NCBI GenBank assembly: GCA_001001205.1
Contig: LCKE01000001.1
Span: 8,208 to 72,207 of the forward strand
Direction: 5' to 3'
Length of the DNA stretch: 64,000 nucleotides
From: Parcubacteria group bacterium GW2011_GWF2_45_11
GTDB taxonomy: Bacteria; Patescibacteriota; Patescibacteriia; UBA1558; UBA10009
Below, one piece after another: positions 11,372 to 61,104 of this stretch (positions are counted from its first letter, which is position 1; the number at the start of each line of letters is the position of its first letter). The position numbers were made by a program, and so were the translations under genes. The notes under the pieces are model-generated. The model was not told the origin of the DNA, made no database searches, and saw only the letters and a program-made list of their open reading frames with translations.

Positions 11372-11416
11372 TTTGTCAGACGGGAAGAAAAGAAAAGTAT
11401 TTTGGATAAATATCGT
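11372..11416 (+). repeat. 45-bp direct repeat, copy 1 (GGGAAGAAAAGAAAAGTATTTTGGATAAATATCGTTCGGGGATCG)
   Basis: 44 of 45 nt identical to 11651-11695. Confidence 0.85.
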
Positions 11417-11650
11417 TCGGGGATCGCCTCGTAATGATTAGAAAAAAAGCGATTTATGCAGTATTATGTTTATATTCTTATAAGTCATGTTAAGCTCCGC
11501 TGGTCTTATGTCGGCAGTACTTCCACCACAAGTATGGTAAAGTGCAATCAACCAAAGCTTTTAGGCCTTTGGAGTTAGCTTATTTTGAAAAGTGCGATAG
11601 CAGGATTAAAGCATATGAAAGAGAGCTTTACCTAAAAACCGGCTTGGGCC

Positions 11651-11695
11651 GGGAAGAAAAGAAAAGTATTTTAGATAAATATCGTTCGGGGATCG
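11651..11695 (+). repeat. 45-bp direct repeat, copy 2, running directly into the T-arm/CCA module
   Basis: Differs from copy 1 by a single G/A substitution. Confidence 0.85.
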
Positions 11696-17010: not shown

Positions 17011-17030
17011 AAAAAGCGTGTAACATGTAA

Positions 17031-17060
17031 CCTGCCCGTCACGACAACGAGCCGGGCGGG
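17031..17060. repeat. conserved-loop GC hairpin, copy 1 (CCTGCCCG-tcACGACAACgAGc-CGGGCGGG)
   Basis: 8-bp GC stem with a 14-nt loop. The same stem and loop recur at 33031-33060 and 54025-54055. Confidence 0.55.
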
Positions 17061-17084
17061 TAACTCTTCATTCTTAAACTGATA

Positions 17085-32999: not shown

Positions 33000-33030
33000 A
33001 TCATAACTGTTTCTACCAACATAAAGCCTG

Positions 33031-33060
33031 ACCGCCCGCCACGACAACAAGACGGGTAGT
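33031..33060. repeat. conserved-loop GC hairpin, copy 2
   Basis: ACCGCCCG-ccACGACAACaAGa-CGGGTAGT, followed by GTTACAAATAATC. Confidence 0.5.
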
Positions 33061-33101
33061 TAACGCGTTACAAATAATCGTTAAATGATGCGCCTACCTT
33101 T

Positions 33102-33270
33102 GTCATTTTAACCGCGGACGGACTTTAGCGAGGCGGAGCGCACCTACCTCTGCGCCAAGCCGTTGTTTTGCTCCGGCAAAGGCAGGAAAAAATCCTTCAT
33201 ATCCTTTCTTTTAATTAAGGAGTTTATCCGCCCGTTCGCCATTAGGCTCACTCGGCGAAATGACAAACAA
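33102..33270 (+). repeat. ~170-nt repeated intergenic element, copy A (terminal inverted repeats GTCATTT...AAATGAC)
   Basis: Shares a conserved 5' core and a 3' module (CGTTCGCCATTAGGCTCACTCGG..GAAATGACAAACAA) with 49266-49431. Its core also matches the reverse complement of 54103-54199. Confidence 0.6.
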
Positions 33271-33348
33271 TTACTTAGCCCATTTAACCTATAACTTAAC
33301 GCTTAACTTTTCTTTTTTCTTAATTCATCATGTAACGCTTGACTTGTA

Positions 33349-34674
33349 ATGAAGCTAAAATTGCTTTTAACCCTGCTTACTTTTTTAATCCCGCTACAAC
33401 TGCTGGCCCGGACGGAAAATCCGGAAATCAGGGTTTTTGATTTTGAGGGCACCCTTTTAAAAACGATCAGCCTTAAAAATTACGGCTGGACCCAAACCGG
33501 AGACATTAAAGTAGCTGACCTTGGAACAGACGGCGTGCCGGAAATAATTTTGAGCGCTCCGGCCGGCGCCAAACCCTATATAAAAATTTACCGCTTGGAC
33601 GGTAGCCCGATTAATGAATTGCTGATTTATCCCGAGGCTTACTTGGGCGGGATCAACTTGGAAATCGCCGATCTTGACCAGGACGGCTATAAAGAAATCA
33701 TTACCGGCGCCACTTTTGGCGGCGGGCCGCATGTCATAATCCTTGACAGTCAGGGGCAAGTTATTAAGTCTTTTTTTGCTTTTGACCTGCTGGATAAGGG
33801 GGGAGTTAATGTCAGCGCCGGCAATCTTTACGGCGATGACAATCTGGAAATCGTAGTCAGCTCCAACGCCCATAACTACGTTAGGGTTTTTGATTCCGGC
33901 GGTAAAATCCTAAACGGCTTTGAGCTTAAAAACAGTTTTACCAATGGGCAAAAAATTGCGACTTTTGACCTGGGCTTAGACGGCCTGGCCGAAATCATCA
34001 CATACTCTAACGCCAGCGACCGGCCATACCTTAATCTTTACAACAACTACGGCGAGAGGCTTAACTCATTTTTGGTCTTTAACGAAAATTTTAGCGGCGG
34101 TTTTAACTTTGACTATCAGGGCTACCAGCTGTTTTTAGGCGCCGGCTTTGGCGGCGGGCCCCATCTTAAAATCGTTGACGGCTACACCAACACCATCAGC
34201 CAGTTTTTTACCGCCGAGCAAAACTTTTTAGGCGGCGTAATGTTCGCGGTTTATAATGATAAAATTTATACCCTGGCTGAACGTTTTGCCACGGCCGTTA
34301 TGCCGGAGAGCCAATATATTTTAATTGATCTTTCCGAACAAAAATTAAAATACTTCCGCGACGGATTTGCCATTTTTGACGAATCAATTTCTTCCGGCAC
34401 GGATTTTTACCCCACACCCGTTGGCCAATATCAAATTCTCAGCAAATCGCCCCTGGCCTATTCTTACACCTACGGCCTGTACATGCCCTTTTGGATGAAC
34501 TTTTATGCCAATTACGGAATTCATGAACTGCCTTACTGGCCTTCCGGCTACCGCGAGGGCGAAAGCCATTTAGGCACTAAAGTCTCTCATGGCTGCGTCC
34601 GCTTGGGCCTTGGCGCCGCGGAAAAATTATATAACCTGGCGACCATCGGCACTAAAGTTTATATTGAGGAATAG
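33349..34674 (+). CDS. secreted FG-GAP/VCBS-repeat protein with C-terminal L,D-transpeptidase (YkuD) domain
   Basis: Signal peptide. Repeats of the DLDQDGYKEIITGATFGGGPHV type. C-terminal L,D-transpeptidase signature SHGCVRL. Confidence 0.7.
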   Translation: MKLKLLLTLLTFLIPLQLLARTENPEIRVFDFEGTLLKTISLKNYGWTQTGDIKVADLGTDGVPEIILSAPAGAKPYIKIYRLDGSPINELLIYPEAYLGGINLEIADLDQDGYKEIITGATFGGGPHVIILDSQGQVIKSFFAFDLLDKGGVNVSAGNLYGDDNLEIVVSSNAHNYVRVFDSGGKILNGFELKNSFTNGQKIATFDLGLDGLAEIITYSNASDRPYLNLYNNYGERLNSFLVFNENFSGGFNFDYQGYQLFLGAGFGGGPHLKIVDGYTNTISQFFTAEQNFLGGVMFAVYNDKIYTLAERFATAVMPESQYILIDLSEQKLKYFRDGFAIFDESISSGTDFYPTPVGQYQILSKSPLAYSYTYGLYMPFWMNFYANYGIHELPYWPSGYREGESHLGTKVSHGCVRLGLGAAEKLYNLATIGTKVYIEE

Positions 34675-49172: not shown

Positions 49173-49265
49173 AAAATTTCCGCGGCCTTAAGCGGAATTT
49201 TTTTATGATATAAAAAAAGATGTAGTCTGCCCGCCCGTTAGTCAAAAATCATGTGCCTCTTTCTT

Positions 49266-49431
49266 GTCATTTCGGCCGAGGACAAACTTTAGTGAGGACG
49301 AGTGCCTGCCTGCGCAAAGCTGTTGCTTCGCTACGGCTATAGCAGGGAGAAATCCCTCGTGTCCTGGCTTATAATCAAGAGATTTCTCCGCTCGTTCGCC
49401 ATTAGGCTCACTCGGTTGAAATGACAAACAA
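49266..49431 (+). repeat. ~170-nt repeated intergenic element, copy B
   Basis: See copy A. Forms an inverted pair with copy C at 54103-54199. Confidence 0.6.
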
Positions 49432-49457
49432 TCACTTAACCCATCACGTCGGGCACG

Positions 49458-50246
49458 CTATAAGACAAAATTAGCCACAAGATAACCTACGCCGAAAGGA
49501 CCTTCGTAGCTTAAAATCTGCGGCTGATAATTAAGTTCACCTAAAATGCCTAAAAGTATCAAAATGGAACGGTAGCCGCATTCGCCAGCCTCAGCCAGCA
49601 ATTCCTGCTTGATTTTCGCAATCGCCTGATGATCTTTTTTCTTCAGCAGGTCAATCAACAACCGGTCAAATTCCTGGCCGCGGGGCGAGTAACCGGCCGG
49701 AGCGTCTTCGGTCAGACGGTGCGAAAGATCGCCTGAAGCCACAACAGCAATGCGCTCGTTGGATTGATCAATAATTTTGCGGATTTGCCCGCCGAACTCC
49801 AGATGTTTGTTTCTGGGTAAAAAAGAATAGCCGATGGGAATGACTTTAAGCTTTTTTAAATTCTGGCTTAAATAAAATAAAGGCACGCCGGCGCCATGAT
49901 CCAGCTCATGATCGGTGGTTAAAACCACCGGCAAAACCGCTTCCGCCCGCTCCCGTATCTGATAAGCCAGCCCCAGATTATTGTTAAACTCCAGTTTGGT
50001 TGAAAGATCGCCGAACTGTTCAAACTTAGACGTCAGCGTGGGTGCGTGGTTGATGGTAAAAGCGTCGGCTAAAAGCTCGCTGTGGGGAGTAATGACGATG
50101 ACGGTTTCGGGATTAGCGTGGTATAAATTTTCTTCAAGCTCTTTTAGTCCCTTAACGGTTTTTTCAATCAAAGCTAAATTTTCCCGGCCGATTTCCGGAA
50201 TAAGCAAGGGGGGATGGGGGCAGATGGCCGCAAAAACCAAAGGCAT
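49458..50246 (-). CDS. AmmeMemoRadiSam system protein B (MEMO1/class III extradiol dioxygenase-like)
   Basis: 262 aa with PLVFAAICPHPPLL start, HGAGVPL and GDLSHRL His motifs typical of the family. Confidence 0.65.
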   Translation of the reverse strand: MPLVFAAICPHPPLLIPEIGRENLALIEKTVKGLKELEENLYHANPETVIVITPHSELLADAFTINHAPTLTSKFEQFGDLSTKLEFNNNLGLAYQIRERAEAVLPVVLTTDHELDHGAGVPLFYLSQNLKKLKVIPIGYSFLPRNKHLEFGGQIRKIIDQSNERIAVVASGDLSHRLTEDAPAGYSPRGQEFDRLLIDLLKKKDHQAIAKIKQELLAEAGECGYRSILILLGILGELNYQPQILSYEGPFGVGYLVANFVL

Positions 50247-50740
50247 ATTTAGTAAGGTTTAAGACTTATAACTGACGCGTGATGGTTAATTAATCATAAC
50301 ACAGATAAATACGGATGAAAAAAGGCATATCGTGGGGCGTATCTGATGTCCAGTTCACAAAGTGATTTAAGCTGGTTAACCTTCTTTAAAAGGTTATTCG
50401 GTATAGATTTCTCCATATTCCGGCAAACGCCTCAGCCTTTTTAAAGGATCTATTTGAACCAAATAATCTTGTAATTCCTCCATGAGTTGTACAAGTACTT
50501 GTTTATTATCTTTGTATTCAACAATTTTTACCATAACCTTTTAAATACGAATTTTCGTAATGTCAGGCAACGGGCGTGTGTCTGCGACGTTGTCTAAGCC
50601 GCATGGCCATATAATTGCCCCGAGCTTGTCGGGGGCTACCGCCTAAGCAGACAAACAATTTGGGTGAGCACTGAGCGATCTTGAGTGAGGAGCAAAGCGA
50701 CGAGTCAAAAAGGAGTTGAAAAGCACATATTAGGATGTAA

Positions 50741-51118
50741 TTAGTGGTTTTTCTTTGCATTCTCATATGCCGCATGCCCGCCAGCCTTCATGTCTTTTGC
50801 TGGATATTTTTTAGCGTTATATTTAATCTTCTTTAACGTTGAATCAAGTAAGTCAATATCATTTTCTTGGCAAAATTCAAGCAGATAGATAAAAATATCC
50901 GCAACTTCTGCAGCAACTTCATTTTTGTTTTTTTCGGCTACGCTCTTGTTTCTTTCAACATCAGTGCTATCCCATTGATAATGCTCTAAAAGTTCAGCGG
51001 CTTCTAAAACGATTGATTTTGCCAAATCTACCGGGGCAAGACCAAGCCAGTCACGTTCTTTCCTGAAAAAATGAAGTTGCTTAACCACTTCCTCAAAGGT
51101 AATGTTTTTATTGGACAT
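50741..51118 (-). CDS. MazG-like nucleotide pyrophosphohydrolase (dCTPase/house-cleaning type)
   Basis: FEEVVKQLHFFRKERDWLGLAPVDLAKSIVLEAAELLE...EVADIFIYLLEF is the MazG EExxE/DxxxY core. The start is taken at the internal Met (MSNKNITF). Confidence 0.6.
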   Translation of the reverse strand: MSNKNITFEEVVKQLHFFRKERDWLGLAPVDLAKSIVLEAAELLEHYQWDSTDVERNKSVAEKNKNEVAAEVADIFIYLLEFCQENDIDLLDSTLKKIKYNAKKYPAKDMKAGGHAAYENAKKNH

Positions 51119-51194
51119 ATAAAAAATAATAAAATTTATTCCCGATGGCAGACAGACAATGAAACTGTCATAAAACCGCCAAAAACTTGAATGA

Positions 51195-52682
51195 TTACTG
51201 CACTTCCAAAAGCTTTGACTCATCTTCTATTAAATCCAGGGCCGGTGTGGAAGTGGCCAGGGCTTCCAAGGCAGAACCGCTCGGATGAACCAGCAGCGCT
51301 TCGCTATTGGTTTCAATAATATTCTGCCAGGCATAGCCGCGAGAAACAAAGGCGGCTTCGTCTTTAATGTGGAGTTTTTGGCCGTCCGAAATAACATAAA
51401 CCTTGCCGTCATTTTTCGCTTTAACTAAGGTGCCGTCTTTAAACCTTACAGGCGAACCCTTGGGGTAACGCTCCAGCTCGTCCATGTGCCCCAAGAGAAT
51501 CGGCTGGCCGGGATAATTAACCTGCAAAATTTCCCCGGCCACAATCGGATACTTAACCCCGTTTTGCACGTAATAAACGCCAGAAGTTTCCACGTCCCTG
51601 ATCAGAGCGCCGGTCGGGTAGCTGCTTTTGAGGGTCAACTCGGCTCCAATCTCAAGCCCGGCCGCGTCCTCTAAGGTGATCTCAATCATTTCCTCCGGAT
51701 TAAAGCCCAGGGTTCTAAAAACCTCCATATCCGCGATATGCCTGAGTTTATCATCCACTAATAAATAAATATTACCGGTAGGATCATGAAGCAATGAATA
51801 CTGGGCAAACTTTATCTCCGGCCCCTCGGCAAAAGAATCTATTTCCGCCTGGGGCACCGCGATTATATTTTTAGGATCAAAATGGCTGATTAACGAAGTA
51901 AAGGAGGCAAACTTGCGGCGCTGGCCGTCGGTAATCAAGTAAACATCATCGCTGTCAGGCGCTTTGAGCAAAGTGCCGTTAGCCCGGAAATGAGAATTTT
52001 CAAACCAGGCATTCCAAATTTTCCAAAAATTATAATTAGCGCCGATGCGGTAACCGTCAACCACCGTATTGCCCTGATAAGGATTGTAGGTGTAAAGGGC
52101 GGCCGTGGCCTTGGTTTGCGGCGTAATGGTGATTTTATCCTGTGTCATTTTGGACACGCCCAAGCACCATTTGGTAAAAGTACAGTAAAATCCGGCCTGG
52201 TGCTTGCCGTAAGCGTTCAAATCCGCCATGTATTCTTTAAATTTTTTAGCGGCGGACTGCACTTGTTTGGTAAAACCTTTGTAAACATCCAGGCAGATTC
52301 CCCCGTAACAGCTGTAGCCGGTCGCCCAGTTGTACTGATTGGCCGAAGGCTCGGTATCGGTTACCAAGCTTTGCTCTTTTTGCAAAAGGGTTAAAAGAAA
52401 GCGGGGATTAATCAGAAACTCCTGGGCCGCGTGCCAGATGGTGTAATAAGCGGCCATGCCGTTGGCCGGATCGGTATAGCTTGCTAAAGCGCCGCCCTGG
52501 ACCTGGAGAAAATCCCTGATTTGCTCAATGCTCATGGCCCTGTAATCCAGCATCTCATCGTCGCTCAAAAGATAGTGAGGATTAAAATCAGGATTATCCT
52601 CGTATGACTCAACGGCCAAGGTCAAATTAAAAGGCAATGATATGGCGATCAAGGAAATTAAAAAAGTTTTTCTGGCGTTCAT
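51195..52682 (-). CDS. secreted hypothetical protein
   Basis: Signal peptide MNARKTFLISLIAISLPFNLTLA. About 495 aa with no recognised motif. Confidence 0.4.
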   Translation of the reverse strand: MNARKTFLISLIAISLPFNLTLAVESYEDNPDFNPHYLLSDDEMLDYRAMSIEQIRDFLQVQGGALASYTDPANGMAAYYTIWHAAQEFLINPRFLLTLLQKEQSLVTDTEPSANQYNWATGYSCYGGICLDVYKGFTKQVQSAAKKFKEYMADLNAYGKHQAGFYCTFTKWCLGVSKMTQDKITITPQTKATAALYTYNPYQGNTVVDGYRIGANYNFWKIWNAWFENSHFRANGTLLKAPDSDDVYLITDGQRRKFASFTSLISHFDPKNIIAVPQAEIDSFAEGPEIKFAQYSLLHDPTGNIYLLVDDKLRHIADMEVFRTLGFNPEEMIEITLEDAAGLEIGAELTLKSSYPTGALIRDVETSGVYYVQNGVKYPIVAGEILQVNYPGQPILLGHMDELERYPKGSPVRFKDGTLVKAKNDGKVYVISDGQKLHIKDEAAFVSRGYAWQNIIETNSEALLVHPSGSALEALATSTPALDLIEDESKLLEVQ

Positions 52683-52738
52683 GGTAAATAAAATAAGCAA
52701 AAGCTAAGCCTTAACATCTCCTCCAGTCTAACAAAAAA

Positions 52739-53812
52739 TCACTCAAATTTCAACGGTAATTGATAACCGCACTTAGGGCATTGACCCGCTAAGCTGTAAT
52801 TGGTGATTTCATAGGCGCGGCGCCTGATCACCAAGGCGCGGCAACAAGGACAATAGGTGTTTTCCCGGCCGTCATTAAGTAAATTGCCCGTGTAAACATA
52901 GCTCAGCCCCGCTTTCAGTCCGGCCTCATAAGCGGCGTCAATCAAGCCGGCGGGTGTGGGCTGATAAGACTGGAGCAAATAAGAAATCTCCGGAGAAAAT
53001 TTGGAAATGTGCCAGGGAACGTCAGGCGAAAGTTCGGTGGCGATAAAATCGGCAATGTCCCCAAGCTGATCCAGCTTGTCTGTCTGGCCAGGGACCAGCA
53101 GGGTGGTCACTTCCAGGTTGACGCCGGCTTTAGCCAGCCGCTGTAAATTTTCCAAAATCGGCGCTAGATGACAGCCGCAATTTTGCCAGTAGATTTGCTC
53201 GTCAAAAAACTTTAAATCCACATTAATGGCGTCCAGCCAGGGGAGTATCTCGTTCAAGCAGTCTTTGGACATGTAGCCATTGGAAACCCAAATATTTTTT
53301 AGGCTATGTTGGCGCGCCAGTTTCATGCAGTCCAAAGCGTACTCAAAAAAAATCGTCGGCTCGGTGTAGGTATAGGCAATTGACCGGCAGCCTGATTCTA
53401 CGGCTTCGGCCACCACCTCTTGTACGCTGACATCATCACCGGGAAACAAAAAATTGTTTTCTTGTCGCACCCCTCTCGTTCCGCTTGCAAAGTCGGGCCG
53501 GGGATTTTTTGATTCTTTAATTCCCTGGCTAATCTGCCAGTTCTGACAATTAGCGCAACACAAATTGCAACCGACCGCAGCGATTGAGTAGGCGGCCGTC
53601 CCCGGCAAAAAATGAAACAGCGGCTTTTTTTCCACCGGATCAACCGCTCTGGCAATCAGGCGTCCGTAATTCAAACTGACTAACAAGCCCGCCTGATTCT
53701 GCCTGACACCGCAAAGACCCCGCTGATTCTCGCTCAACCGGCAAAAATGGCGGCACAAACAACATTGGACCAAACACCTGGGTAATTTTTTGTATAAGCC
53801 GGCTTCTCTCAT
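52739..53812 (-). CDS. AmmeMemoRadiSam system radical SAM enzyme
   Basis: N-terminal Cys cluster (LVQCCLCRHFC). NYGRLIARAVDPVEKKPLFHF and a CNLCCANCQNW (CxxxCxxC) radical SAM motif match the family almost residue for residue. Confidence 0.8.
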   Translation of the reverse strand: MREAGLYKKLPRCLVQCCLCRHFCRLSENQRGLCGVRQNQAGLLVSLNYGRLIARAVDPVEKKPLFHFLPGTAAYSIAAVGCNLCCANCQNWQISQGIKESKNPRPDFASGTRGVRQENNFLFPGDDVSVQEVVAEAVESGCRSIAYTYTEPTIFFEYALDCMKLARQHSLKNIWVSNGYMSKDCLNEILPWLDAINVDLKFFDEQIYWQNCGCHLAPILENLQRLAKAGVNLEVTTLLVPGQTDKLDQLGDIADFIATELSPDVPWHISKFSPEISYLLQSYQPTPAGLIDAAYEAGLKAGLSYVYTGNLLNDGRENTYCPCCRALVIRRRAYEITNYSLAGQCPKCGYQLPLKFE

Positions 53813-54024
53813 AAGTCTATTATAGCAATTGAATCAGAGTAATAAAAATGCTAAAATAGGACGGAGATTGGGTGAGTTGGTCATTAGGTAGATCAGATAG
53901 ATTGATTGATCAGGTTGATTGGGAGATTAGGTTGTTAGCTAATTAATTATCTAACATAGCCCAACCGACCCAAGCCACCAATGAACCCGTTTCCGTGTAA
54001 CTCATAACGCGTATCGCGGATCAT

Positions 54025-54055
54025 GCCCGCCCGCCACCACAACAAGTCGGGCGGG
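54025..54055. repeat. conserved-loop GC hairpin, copy 3 (GCCCGCCCG-ccACCACAACAAGt-CGGGCGGG)
   Basis: Same stem and loop as copies 1 and 2, followed by GTAACAAATAATC as in copy 2. Confidence 0.55.
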
Positions 54056-54102
54056 TAACCCGTAACAAATAATCAAAAAATCAATTTCTTGCTTTAAACT
54101 AA

Positions 54103-54199
54103 GGGATTTCTCCCTGCCATAGCCGTAGCGAAGCAACAGCTTTGCGCAGGCAGGCGCTCGTCCTCACTAAAGTTTGTCTTCGGTCAAAATGACAAACAA
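54103..54199 (-). repeat. repeated intergenic element, copy C (core only, inverted orientation)
   Basis: The reverse complement matches the 49266-49362 core of copy B with only a few mismatches. Confidence 0.6.
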
Positions 54200-54257
54200 C
54201 TAACGTAACTCTTAACGCTTAACTCATCATTCTAATCCACCCATTCACCCAATAAAA

Positions 54258-54806
54258 ATGAAACGAATTTTCCTCGGTATTGATTTACCTCATGAGTTGA
54301 AAAATAAAATAGAAAAGCTGAAAAACGAATATCAGCTGAAAAATCTGCCGATTAAATTGGTTGAGCCGGAGAACAGCCATATCGCCTTTAAATTTTTGGC
54401 TAACCTGACAGACGAACAAATAGCCCGGGTGGCGGAGACTGTCAGCCGGGCGGTGGAAAACTTTAAATGCTTTAACGTTAGCATCTCCGGCTGTTTGGCT
54501 TTTCCTAACTTTGAGCATGCCAGAGTCCTGGCTCTAAAAGTCGTCAGCCCCAACTTAAACGGCCTGGCCACCAAACTGTTCAGCCGCTTTAACGAACTTG
54601 ATTTTATTGAGCCGGAACAAAGGCCCTACGCGCCTCACGTGACTTTGGGCAGAATTAAAGATACCTTAACCCTCAGCCAGCAGCAAAAAATTTCCCAGCT
54701 AAAATTCGGCGCGGAATTCCTGGTTGACCGTCTCCAGCTTTTTCACAGCCAGTTGACCGCTGACGGTCCCGCTTATGCTGTTTTAAAAAACTTTCAACTT
54801 AAATAA
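54258..54806 (+). CDS. thpR: RNA 2',3'-cyclic phosphodiesterase (2H phosphoesterase, LigT/ThpR)
   Basis: Two H-x-T/S-x motifs: SHIAFKFL and PHVTLGRI. Confidence 0.7.
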   Translation: MKRIFLGIDLPHELKNKIEKLKNEYQLKNLPIKLVEPENSHIAFKFLANLTDEQIARVAETVSRAVENFKCFNVSISGCLAFPNFEHARVLALKVVSPNLNGLATKLFSRFNELDFIEPEQRPYAPHVTLGRIKDTLTLSQQQKISQLKFGAEFLVDRLQLFHSQLTADGPAYAVLKNFQLK

Positions 54807-60000: not shown

Positions 60001-60098
60001 TTTGTCAACAGCCAAAATTTAGCCTGTCAAAATTTAGCCAAAATTTAGCCTGTCAAAATTTAGACACAGACAAAATTTTAGACTAAATTTTAATGTAA
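60001..60098. repeat. tandem/iterated AAAATTTAG(C/A)C(TGT) repeats (5-6 copies) with a terminal palindrome AAAATTTTAGACTAAATTTT
   Basis: Read directly from the sequence. Lies 40 bp beyond the 3' end of the tyrosine recombinase gene. Confidence 0.7.
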
Positions 60099-60135: not shown

Positions 60136-61104
60136 TTACCGCAAAGGGTGAAACTTAGTATGGACCTCTTGAGCGTAACGATCAGAAGCGTGAACGTACC
60201 GAGTGGTCGTATCCAAAGACTCATGGCCTAAAAGCACTTGAATGGCCGCCGGATTAGCGCCTTCCTCGGCCAAATAGGTGGCAAAACCGTGCCTTAACGA
60301 ATGAGCGGAAATGGGAGTATTGATTCTTAAAATTTCCCGATAATGCTTAATCCTTGCCTGAAGATAATTAGGTGAAATTTTCTTATTTTTATCAGCGGCG
60401 TTACGTCCCCTTAAGGGCGTGTACAAAAAATCCGAATGATCTTTGGCTTCGGCCAGATAATTTTTAAGGTGAGCTATGGCTCTGGGAGTCAGATAAACAA
60501 ATCTTTCTTTTTTGCCTTTGCCCATAATAAATATCTTGCCGGTGTCGTCAATCTGGCTCTTTTTAAGATTAATCAGCTCGGAGATCCTCATGCCGGTGGC
60601 AAAGAGCATCTCCAGCATCGCCCGATTACGCAAGCCCACCGGTTTATTTTTTTCCAGCTTGAGTGGTGATTCAATCAATTTAACCAGATCATTAAATTCC
60701 GCCACCCTAGGGTGTTTTCGTTCGGTTTTAACCAGCTTGATCGCTTCTGGTGAAATGGGCGACTGATAGTCAAAATCTATTAAAAATTTCAAATAAGAAC
60801 GCAAGGCCGAAAGAATCCGGTTAATGGAATAACTGGCCAAACGCACCTGGCCTTTGTGGTGCCTGGGCGTCTGGCGGTCGATAGAGGAGAGGTAAGCCTT
60901 ATAATTCAAAATAAAACGCTTATCAAGCTGGCTGAATTTTACTTTAGTGTTGCTCAAAAAATCCTGAAAAATATTCAAGTCGCGTTCATAATTATAAACC
61001 GTTTCCGGGGAATAATAATTTGTCTGCAGATGCAATAAAAACTCATCCAAAAGGGGGAGTGAGGCAGTGGCCGATTGTTTTTTGGCTTTTTGGGGCTTCA
61101 GCAT
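60136..61104 (-). CDS. tyrosine site-specific recombinase (XerC/XerD-like)
   Basis: C-terminal catalytic motifs R..HSLRHGFATYLAEEGANPAAIQVLLGHESLDTTTRYVH, with the catalytic Tyr. N-terminal core-binding domain. Confidence 0.8.
   Translation of the reverse strand: MLKPQKAKKQSATASLPLLDEFLLHLQTNYYSPETVYNYERDLNIFQDFLSNTKVKFSQLDKRFILNYKAYLSSIDRQTPRHHKGQVRLASYSINRILSALRSYLKFLIDFDYQSPISPEAIKLVKTERKHPRVAEFNDLVKLIESPLKLEKNKPVGLRNRAMLEMLFATGMRISELINLKKSQIDDTGKIFIMGKGKKERFVYLTPRAIAHLKNYLAEAKDHSDFLYTPLRGRNAADKNKKISPNYLQARIKHYREILRINTPISAHSLRHGFATYLAEEGANPAAIQVLLGHESLDTTTRYVHASDRYAQEVHTKFHPLR

Follow-up and report, generated by a model that had tools for sequence, protein, structure and literature searches.

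Dispersed palindromic repeats of bacteria are built in several ways, and those closest to the DNA considered here are the ERIC/IRU sequences of Enterobacteria (imperfect palindromes of about 127 bp), the miniature inverted-repeat transposable elements (MITEs) Correia of Neisseria and RUP of Streptococcus, the BOX repeats of the pneumococcus, the BIMEs of E. coli, and the Rickettsia palindromic elements (RPEs). Bacteria of the candidate phyla radiation (CPR) or Patescibacteria have small, streamlined genomes in which repeats and mobile DNA are generally said to be scarce. Our literature search returned nothing on MITEs or REP-like repeats in Parcubacteria or the CPR. Here we analyze a 64,000-nt stretch of contig LCKE01000001.1 of Parcubacteria group bacterium GW2011_GWF2_45_11 (below, "the window") in which a unit of about 175 nt occurs three times, with two of its copies bracketing a 4.7-kb segment that carries genes of the AmmeMemoRadiSam system. 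With moderate confidence, we read this unit as a non-autonomous palindromic interspersed repeat that represents a new MITE/ERIC-like family in Komeilibacteria and related Parcubacteria.

Like ERIC/IRU sequences, to which we liken it by build rather than by any comparison of sequences, the unit is an imperfect palindrome of 100–200 nt that lies only in intergenic, probably transcribed DNA, takes either orientation at species-specific sites, is conserved above the surrounding DNA, shows internal indel variants, and has neither a known transposase nor a visible target duplication. Unlike them, it resides in a CPR host, has an apparently much lower copy number, and is accompanied by separate flanking modules. 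With Correia and RUP it shares a short, non-coding build with terminal inverted repeats and hairpin potential, a dispersed distribution in intergenic DNA, and absence from the orthologous sites of relatives, but those MITEs have TA target duplications and a recognizable parent insertion sequence (IS), neither of which was found here. Strict MITE membership is therefore unproven, and we would say that the unit works like a MITE, not that it is one. As in BOX repeats and BIMEs, there are separable modules (here a GC-hairpin unit called D5, a core with two hairpins called hp1 and hp2, and a AACGCTTAAC tail) that also occur singly and in varied combinations and orientations, although the modules and sequences are different ones and no RAYT-type partner was identified here; for BOX and BIMEs, too, we know of no established mechanism of spread. 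Finally, the 44-nt hp1 module recalls RPEs in that it sits in frame within the essential gene fmt and leaves the open reading frame (ORF) intact, yet this is a single case and the full element was never met inside a gene.

A repeat search of the window singled out two inverted 94-nt arms at 49264-49357 and 54102-54195 with 95% complementarity and 4744 nt between them, while the runner-up pair not involving the element measured only 37 nt at 70%. This bears out the inverted repeats that a preceding sequence-only reading had described around the 49-54 kb segment. The copies to which these arms belong, together with a third, are the following:

33099..33274, plus strand: copy A, a full-length core with terminal inverted repeat and three-way hairpin, the most diverged copy.
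49264..49435, plus strand: copy B, a full-length core whose left 94 nt are one arm of the inverted-repeat pair.
About 54083..54195, minus strand: copy C, a truncated core that retains the left terminal repeat and left arm along with hp1 and a degenerate hp2.

The copy reported earlier at around 33 kb is indeed full length and aligns with copy B over 176 nt at 77% identity. By contrast, the one at 54 kb had been taken for a full element and is none: nothing beyond the left ~95-110 nt is present, the right arm is lacking, and the orientation is opposite to that of A and B. In this form it supplies the other arm of the inverted pair. The full copies are short (172-176 nt) and non-coding. Their terminal inverted repeats, proposed in the sequence-only reading and confirmed at about 17 bp in both A and B (TTGTCATTTYRRCCGAG ... 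CTCGGYTGAAATGACAA; in a further written form of the repeats bounding the core, TTTGTCATTT...AAATGACAAA), enclose a long imperfect palindrome with the internal hairpins hp1 and hp2. Within it, a 23-nt block (CGTTCGCCATTAGGCTCACTCGG) is identical between A and B, where shuffles expect 0 matches. A small ORF that recurs in the element (MANERRNLL..., with GAGTGAG ahead) was considered as the cause of this conserved 23-mer and rejected: the changes between A and B are mostly non-synonymous (9 non-synonymous and 4 synonymous by hand count), which gives no sign of coding constraint, and the position of the stop differs.

The unit is not confined to the window. Exact-protein matches place the host among Candidatus Komeilibacteria (Parcubacteria, CPR) as a species assembled repeatedly from Rifle groundwater, including GCA_001818475.1, GCA_003450745.1, GCA_003514775.1, and many ENA and JGI contigs. 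Translated copy B had one match in the protein collection, a 57-aa "hypothetical protein" of Parcubacteria bacterium GW2011_GWC2_45_15, and on the contig concerned a full copy with 90% identity to B separates ftsH from a DAGK-family (PF00781) kinase gene. Scanning metagenomes with a conserved 21-mer recovered this ftsH locus in five further contigs along with a second locus, at which the copy is 92% identical to B and has the 3' end of dnaJ on one side and a membrane-protein gene on the other. We thus count five distinct loci in at least two species, at non-orthologous sites that are all intergenic, and the three copies of the window are not the only ones in existence; that no others exist is what the sequence-only reading had named as speaking against its proposals. 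The sole homologous coding DNA common to those contigs and the window is 66-71% identical in nucleotides and 40-42% in amino acids (orthology unverified), and the fetched loci and the window share no orthologous housekeeping gene by which the distance to the GW2011-like species could be calibrated.

Other searches yielded matches that we take as chance, namely five to the 18-mer GTTCGCCATTAGGCTCAC in unrelated high-GC bacteria of the genome collection (of which at least L001, taken on the opposite strand, shows ATG GCG AAC behind a ribosome-binding site) and six to a 17-mer in viral contigs. A degenerate pattern of the left half had no match in the first metagenome scan or the viral scan, and neither did the D5 pattern in the viral scan.

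Relatives of the host, reached through Memo and SecD orthologues at 58-75% protein identity, show what the three sites look like when empty. At the site of copy B, the flanking Memo gene and 88-aa gene are 43 nt apart or overlap in the contigs L017, L021/22, L046-49, and L053/54 as opposed to 285 nt here; the LigT–radical SAM spacer that holds copy C measures ~220 nt in L017 versus 446 nt here, with only the promoter region of the radical SAM gene in common; and the spacer upstream of the FG-GAP gene, the site of copy A, is 87 nt in L053. Searches with nhmmer found no core copy in the relatives' loci at any of these sites. Among the related species examined, the orthologous site is empty in four for B, in two for C, and in one for A.

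Beyond the core, the similarity between copies runs past the terminal repeats on both sides into further modules, listed here together with a terminator next to copy B:

33021..33098, plus strand: D5 unit left of copy A, whose imperfect GC hairpin belongs to the CCCGCCCG..CGGGCGGG type (CCGCCCG..CGGGTAG at this site) and is followed by ACAAATAATC and AAATGATGCGCCTACC in turn.
33264..33311, plus strand: right extension of copy A, CAAACAATTACTTAGCCCAT, then the TTAACGCTTAAC motif.
49178..49197, no strand assigned: bidirectional intrinsic terminator hairpin with T runs on both strands, adjoining copy B.
49228..49263, plus strand: degenerate D5 unit left of copy B, CTGCCCGCCCG...AAATCATGTGCCTCTTTC, with the 3' half of the hairpin missing.
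54015..54092, plus strand: D5 unit left of copy C, oriented as at copy A.
54193..54228, plus strand: right extension of copy C, CAAACAACTAACG, then CTTAACGCTTAACTC.
17029..17069, plus strand: solo D5-type GC hairpin between two minus-strand genes of the pilus operon, with no core adjoining.

The general layout on the left is a GC hairpin (CCCGCCCG..CGGGCGGG) followed by ACAAATAATC and AAATCATGTGCCTACC, and that on the right CAAACAATTACTTAACCCAT followed by the AACGCTTAAC tail, so that the repeat is modular (D5 unit, core, and tail), with D5 and hp1 each occurring alone as well. Copy A sits between a NUDIX gene and an FG-GAP/YkuD gene, with its D5 unit beginning ~20 nt past the NUDIX stop and its right extension ~40 nt upstream of the FG-GAP/YkuD start at 33349. 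Copy C occupies the divergent spacer between the genes of the radical SAM enzyme (rSAM) and LigT, its right extension lying ~30 nt upstream of the LigT/ThpR start at 54258. Copy B is found between the convergent 88-aa gene (plus strand) and Memo gene (minus strand), and a Memo transcript would reach the terminator at 49178-49197 only by reading through the copy. The AACGCTTAAC motif was met at five distinct sites in the whole of the fetched DNA, and at four of these it adjoins a copy on its right.

Solo D5 units were found elsewhere at L023:5191-5290, on another Parcubacteria contig (where 5207-5262 is 89% identical to the D5 unit beside copy C), and more weakly at L024:2182-2238 (nhmmer E = 8.7e-4). 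As side observations, the solo GC hairpins at 17029-17069, L023:5191-5290, and L024:2182-2238 come from two species, carry GTAAC flanks followed by TAACNCGTAACAAA(T)AA, and lie within an operon, in a divergent spacer, or immediately past a stop codon; they may constitute a lineage-specific terminator-like or REP-like motif. A solo hp1 module of 44 nt (L046:2728-2771; 80% identity to B, and E = 1e-6 under a model built without that sequence) adds 19 residues in frame to the fmt product of a related Komeilibacteria-like species; four other Fmt orthologues lack these residues. This fmt gene has another in-frame insertion further upstream, formed by a second GC-rich palindrome (CCTGCCGGCAGG, TTCGCCTTTGGCGAA; L046:2185-2235).

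These modules lend some support to a different view of the pieces, either as relics of the ends or of recombination or attachment sites of a larger mobile element or as a core that inserts site-specifically beside D5, its ends being cut by a dedicated nuclease or recombinase in the way that some IS elements target REP sequences. The D5 unit and AACGCTTAAC tail are oriented alike at A and C even though the C core is inverted and truncated, the solo D5 unit of L023 terminates at ...GTGCCTACC, which is exactly where the core starts in A, and three independent deletions (described below) share the breakpoint ...AAATGA^C at the core terminus. In addition, an Xer-like tyrosine recombinase gene with iteron-like repeats lies 6 kb from copy C. 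However, the bases adjoining the core are not conserved (ACC, TCC, TTC, CGC), the solo D5 lacks the right-hand tail expected of an unoccupied target, neither a larger element nor a dedicated enzyme was found in the window or fetched loci, and the Xer-like gene, which every strain has, sits in a housekeeping context. We consider this view improbable. We also dropped the specific proposal of a contiguous D5-tail "host" unit into which the core was inserted at TTTG^CAAA, as the single solo D5 unit available gives it no support. A bolder version would make the core a unit that moves site-specifically, or else a mobile gene for a structured RNA, which is cut precisely at TCATTT...AAATGA^, homes beside D5 either way, and is exchanged among co-resident CPR species. 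It would account for the shared deletion breakpoint, the fixed flanks around the inverted C core, and the 90-92% identity between species, and if true would amount to a new kind of targeting system for CPR bacteria; we regard it as slightly more doubtful still.

The recombinase just mentioned (60136-61104) is the sole one seen in the gene tables and Pfam scans of the window. Tandem and inverted iteron-like CTAAATTTTGRC repeats at 60012-60068 adjoin its gene, and an NCBI assembly of the locus (L056) has an N-gap exactly at these repeats. An IS200-type Y1 transposase (L016:13077-13508), the only gene of the Y1 kind that we saw, was entertained as a RAYT-like partner and discarded, for it lies 3 kb from a copy, has unrelated IS200-like flanks, and is bordered by no copy. 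The same contig shows a cluster of tRNA-like sequences at L016:12300-12940, followed by this Y1 transposase gene with an apparent early in-frame stop.

If the unit were instead kept for what it does as RNA, its structure should tell. Copy B is predicted to fold at -67.6 kcal/mol on the plus strand (z = -5.6) and at -66.4 kcal/mol on the minus strand (z = -4.9), while copy A folds more weakly (z = -2.9 and -3.6 on the two strands), and the stem-loops of the copies range in stability from -54 to -68 kcal/mol. Such very stable predicted folds would suit a structured small RNA gene, possibly mobile, of which the copies would be paralogues and whose sequence, especially the 23-nt block, would be kept by selection on RNA function. 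The same can be said of the 90-92% identity across species in the face of far more diverged coding DNA nearby, of the 23-nt block that is unchanged between A and B despite 23% overall divergence, and of the one-sided changes in hp1, which are all G-U compatible on the plus strand. Yet the evidence from an alignment of A, B, the B allele found in L006, L023, and L026 is negative, though with three of these five distinct full-length sequences >90% alike the power of the test is low. RNAalifold gave a covariation term of +0.48, compensatory double changes occur in 2 of 56 pairs, and the covariation score was reached by 159 of 500 shuffles. The "possible compensatory differences" between A and B suggested earlier are therefore no more than shuffling produces. 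Unpaired cells (16 of 279) fall mostly in copy A, and the 16 broken pairs on each strand reveal no strand bias; such equal pairing on both strands is what a DNA palindrome would be expected to show.

Inside the copies, there is no promoter-like or terminator-like site, and the element has no sigma-70-like promoter or intrinsic terminator of its own. A scan for promoters in the terminal repeats, outward or inward with TTGTCA as -35 box, likewise found none, the -10 candidates being poor. Rfam had no match at gathering score in the window and nothing credible at permissive thresholds, where the best sub-threshold match was PYLIS_3 with 21 bits against a cut-off of 38. Moreover, copy C persists in truncated form, as do hp1 and D5 modules on their own, and the L036 strain has a single-nucleotide polymorphism within the "invariant" 23-nt block. 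Taken together, we think it unlikely that the core is a small RNA gene.

Much the same evidence bears on the proposal of the sequence-only reading that the copies are a family of cis-regulatory RNAs, i.e., conserved leaders, terminators, or other regulatory elements at operon boundaries. All copies are intergenic, the element end lies 60-190 nt upstream of a gene start at A, C, L023, and L026, and copy B adjoins a terminator. The downstream genes, however, are unrelated (FG-GAP/YkuD, LigT, ftsH, and a membrane protein), related species carry the same genes without the element, and conservation of the rSAM promoter (TGCTATAAT) does not depend on the repeat. Since the orientation relative to the neighboring gene is mixed (A and L026 run along with the downstream gene, L023 runs opposite, and B lies between two convergent 3' ends), and since promoters or terminators inside the copies, a covariation signal, and an Rfam family are all lacking, a cis-regulatory RNA is very unlikely.

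We thus return to the palindromic interspersed repeat, for which a short, non-coding build, terminal inverted repeats, dispersal, and empty sites in relatives are in place, so that this much of the "MITE-like mobile repeat" proposed earlier holds, while target-site duplications and an autonomous partner are missing from it. Several observations weigh against this reading. No direct target-site duplication was seen at any boundary tested for A, B, C, L023, and L026, and the bases adjoining the core (TTTG/CAAA) lengthen the inverted repeat instead of forming a direct one. A check of almost all long ORFs of the window (gene tables and Pfam, three ORFs at ~18.2-22.9 kb aside) found no transposase; what is annotated there comprises housekeeping genes and a type IV pilus operon. 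Neither the window nor the fetched loci contain a longer element with the same terminal repeats, though no dedicated search for a parent IS was made. Presence/absence polymorphism within the species is lacking, as every strain contig carries A, B, and C. The copy number looks low: the 64 kb of the window contain three copies, the 10 kb that follow contain no further one, and the metagenome matches listed place the repeat at just two loci of the other species. A simple cut-and-paste MITE model fails to explain the fixed-orientation flanking modules around the inverted C core. Lastly, the identity of 90-92% between species and the 23-nt block retained in the diverged copy A could reflect functional constraint. 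The covariation test, with only five distinct full-length sequences, has little power.

If we nevertheless follow the interspersed repeat, its copies would be propagated as DNA, whether through a transposase that works in trans on the terminal repeats or through recombination or conversion among copies, and would probably also pass between co-resident species. A copy that is co-transcribed would form a very stable stem-loop, in the 3' untranslated region in the case of copy B (upstream of the bidirectional terminator) and in a leader or intercistronic region in those of copy A and L026, and these stem-loops could incidentally stabilize or attenuate transcripts, like REP and ERIC elements. The inverted pair of B and C would be the by-product of two independent insertions, and copy C a decayed, rearranged copy.

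The ends of the element look unstable. In the intergenic region between ftsH and the DAGK-family kinase gene of the GW2011_GWC2_45_15-like species, four alleles (L026:3340-3400, L027:5190-5200, L016:10005-10015, and L029:815-825) are distinguished by nested deletions (30, 39, and about 140 nt) that all start at the right terminus of the element (...GGTTGAAATGA^C), and with the largest of these ftsH loses its upstream TATAAT box. In the NCBI assemblies L006 and L012, what looked like indel polymorphisms of B and C proved to be N-gaps where the assembly is broken inside the repeat. The L006 allele of B has a central loop of the copy A type, which may stem from gene conversion or from a chimeric assembly.

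The segment between B and C had attracted attention as a composite or invertible piece of DNA carrying a split AmmeMemoRadiSam gene pair. Its gene content is as claimed, with five genes and both system-specific matches above their cut-offs:

49458-50246, minus strand: Memo/LigB-type AmmeMemoRadiSam protein B (TIGR04336, 41.6 bits, cut-off 26).
50394-50534, minus strand: 46-aa ORF within the segment bracketed by B and C.
50741-51118, minus strand: MazG-like pyrophosphatase gene (PF12643 and PHROG pyrophosphatase matches).
51195-52700, minus strand: secreted 495-501-aa protein with a hydrophobic N-terminus.
52739-53812, minus strand: AmmeMemoRadiSam radical SAM enzyme (TIGR04337, 308 bits, cut-off 220).

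The absence of an AMMECR1 partner holds as well, with no match to PF01871 in the gene tables or in the Pfam scans, which cover most of the window. The gene order of L017 (LigT, rSAM, secreted protein, Memo, 88-aa gene, def, fmt), a relative without the repeats, shows that the order and orientation of the genes between B and C are ancestral. The gene of the secreted ~500-aa protein adjoins Memo in every relative examined, so that the "split" of the AmmeMemoRadiSam genes by this conserved protein is ancestral in the lineage, and the protein may be part of the system. Among the bracketed genes, only the MazG-like gene and the 46-aa ORF are species-specific. The latter (MVKIVEYKDNKQ...), judged by eye, is possibly the N-terminal fragment of a longer gene. 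The stretch 50250-51190, with the MazG-like gene, the 46-aa ORF, and ~500 nt of non-coding DNA, is missing from all relatives examined.

That the repeats make the 4.7-kb segment a phase-variable invertible element or a composite-transposon-like cassette is suggested by the arms themselves, which at this length, identity, and inverted placement are in principle a substrate for RecA-mediated inversion. The composite transposon fails because rSAM, the secreted protein, and Memo are all in place in L017, which has no repeats. As for inversion, the strain assemblies shown, which come from different samples, have the segment in one orientation throughout, relatives without the repeats share gene order and orientation, no invertase lies adjacent, and no promoter would obviously move relative to the genes. 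The ancestral order and uniform orientation rule out composite-transposon cargo and leave an invertible segment unsupported, making this the most improbable of the explanations considered here. The 4.7-kb segment is neither cargo nor a detected invertible segment, and the B/C pair is a potential substrate for homologous inversion that nothing suggests is used.

Some neighboring sequences are of interest in their own right. The rSAM/LigT spacer also holds a separate imperfect palindrome of ~130 nt (53862-53995) between the rSAM promoter and the D5 unit, preceded by a promoter-like TTGAAT-17-TAAAAT on the plus strand (53829-53857); the stretch 53862-54062 is predicted to fold at -68.9 kcal/mol (z = -3.6). 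This palindrome is missing from the orthologous spacer of L017, which suggests that the spacer has gathered several palindromic insertions. Elsewhere in the window, a direct repeat of 46 nt (11381-11426 and 11650-11695, 98% identical, 269 nt apart) lies downstream of the CTP synthase gene. A JGI contig of the same species has ~700 extra nt at L011:16479-17200 (about 43.5 kb in the window) with two tiny ORFs, one of which matches DNA_topoisoIV; other strains are without this stretch.

For students of the still-uncharacterized AmmeMemoRadiSam system, these results remove an over-interpretation, in that its genes are here not on a mobile or phase-variable cassette, and they offer instead the ancestral split by a secreted protein as a useful lead. 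For those working with CPR genomes, the repeat family matters in that it breaks short-read assemblies and is tied to end-anchored deletions, one of which costs ftsH its upstream TATAAT box. A modular palindromic repeat at ~90% identity across species of one aquifer would also open a way to follow how these unculturable organisms exchange DNA and how plastic their genomes are.

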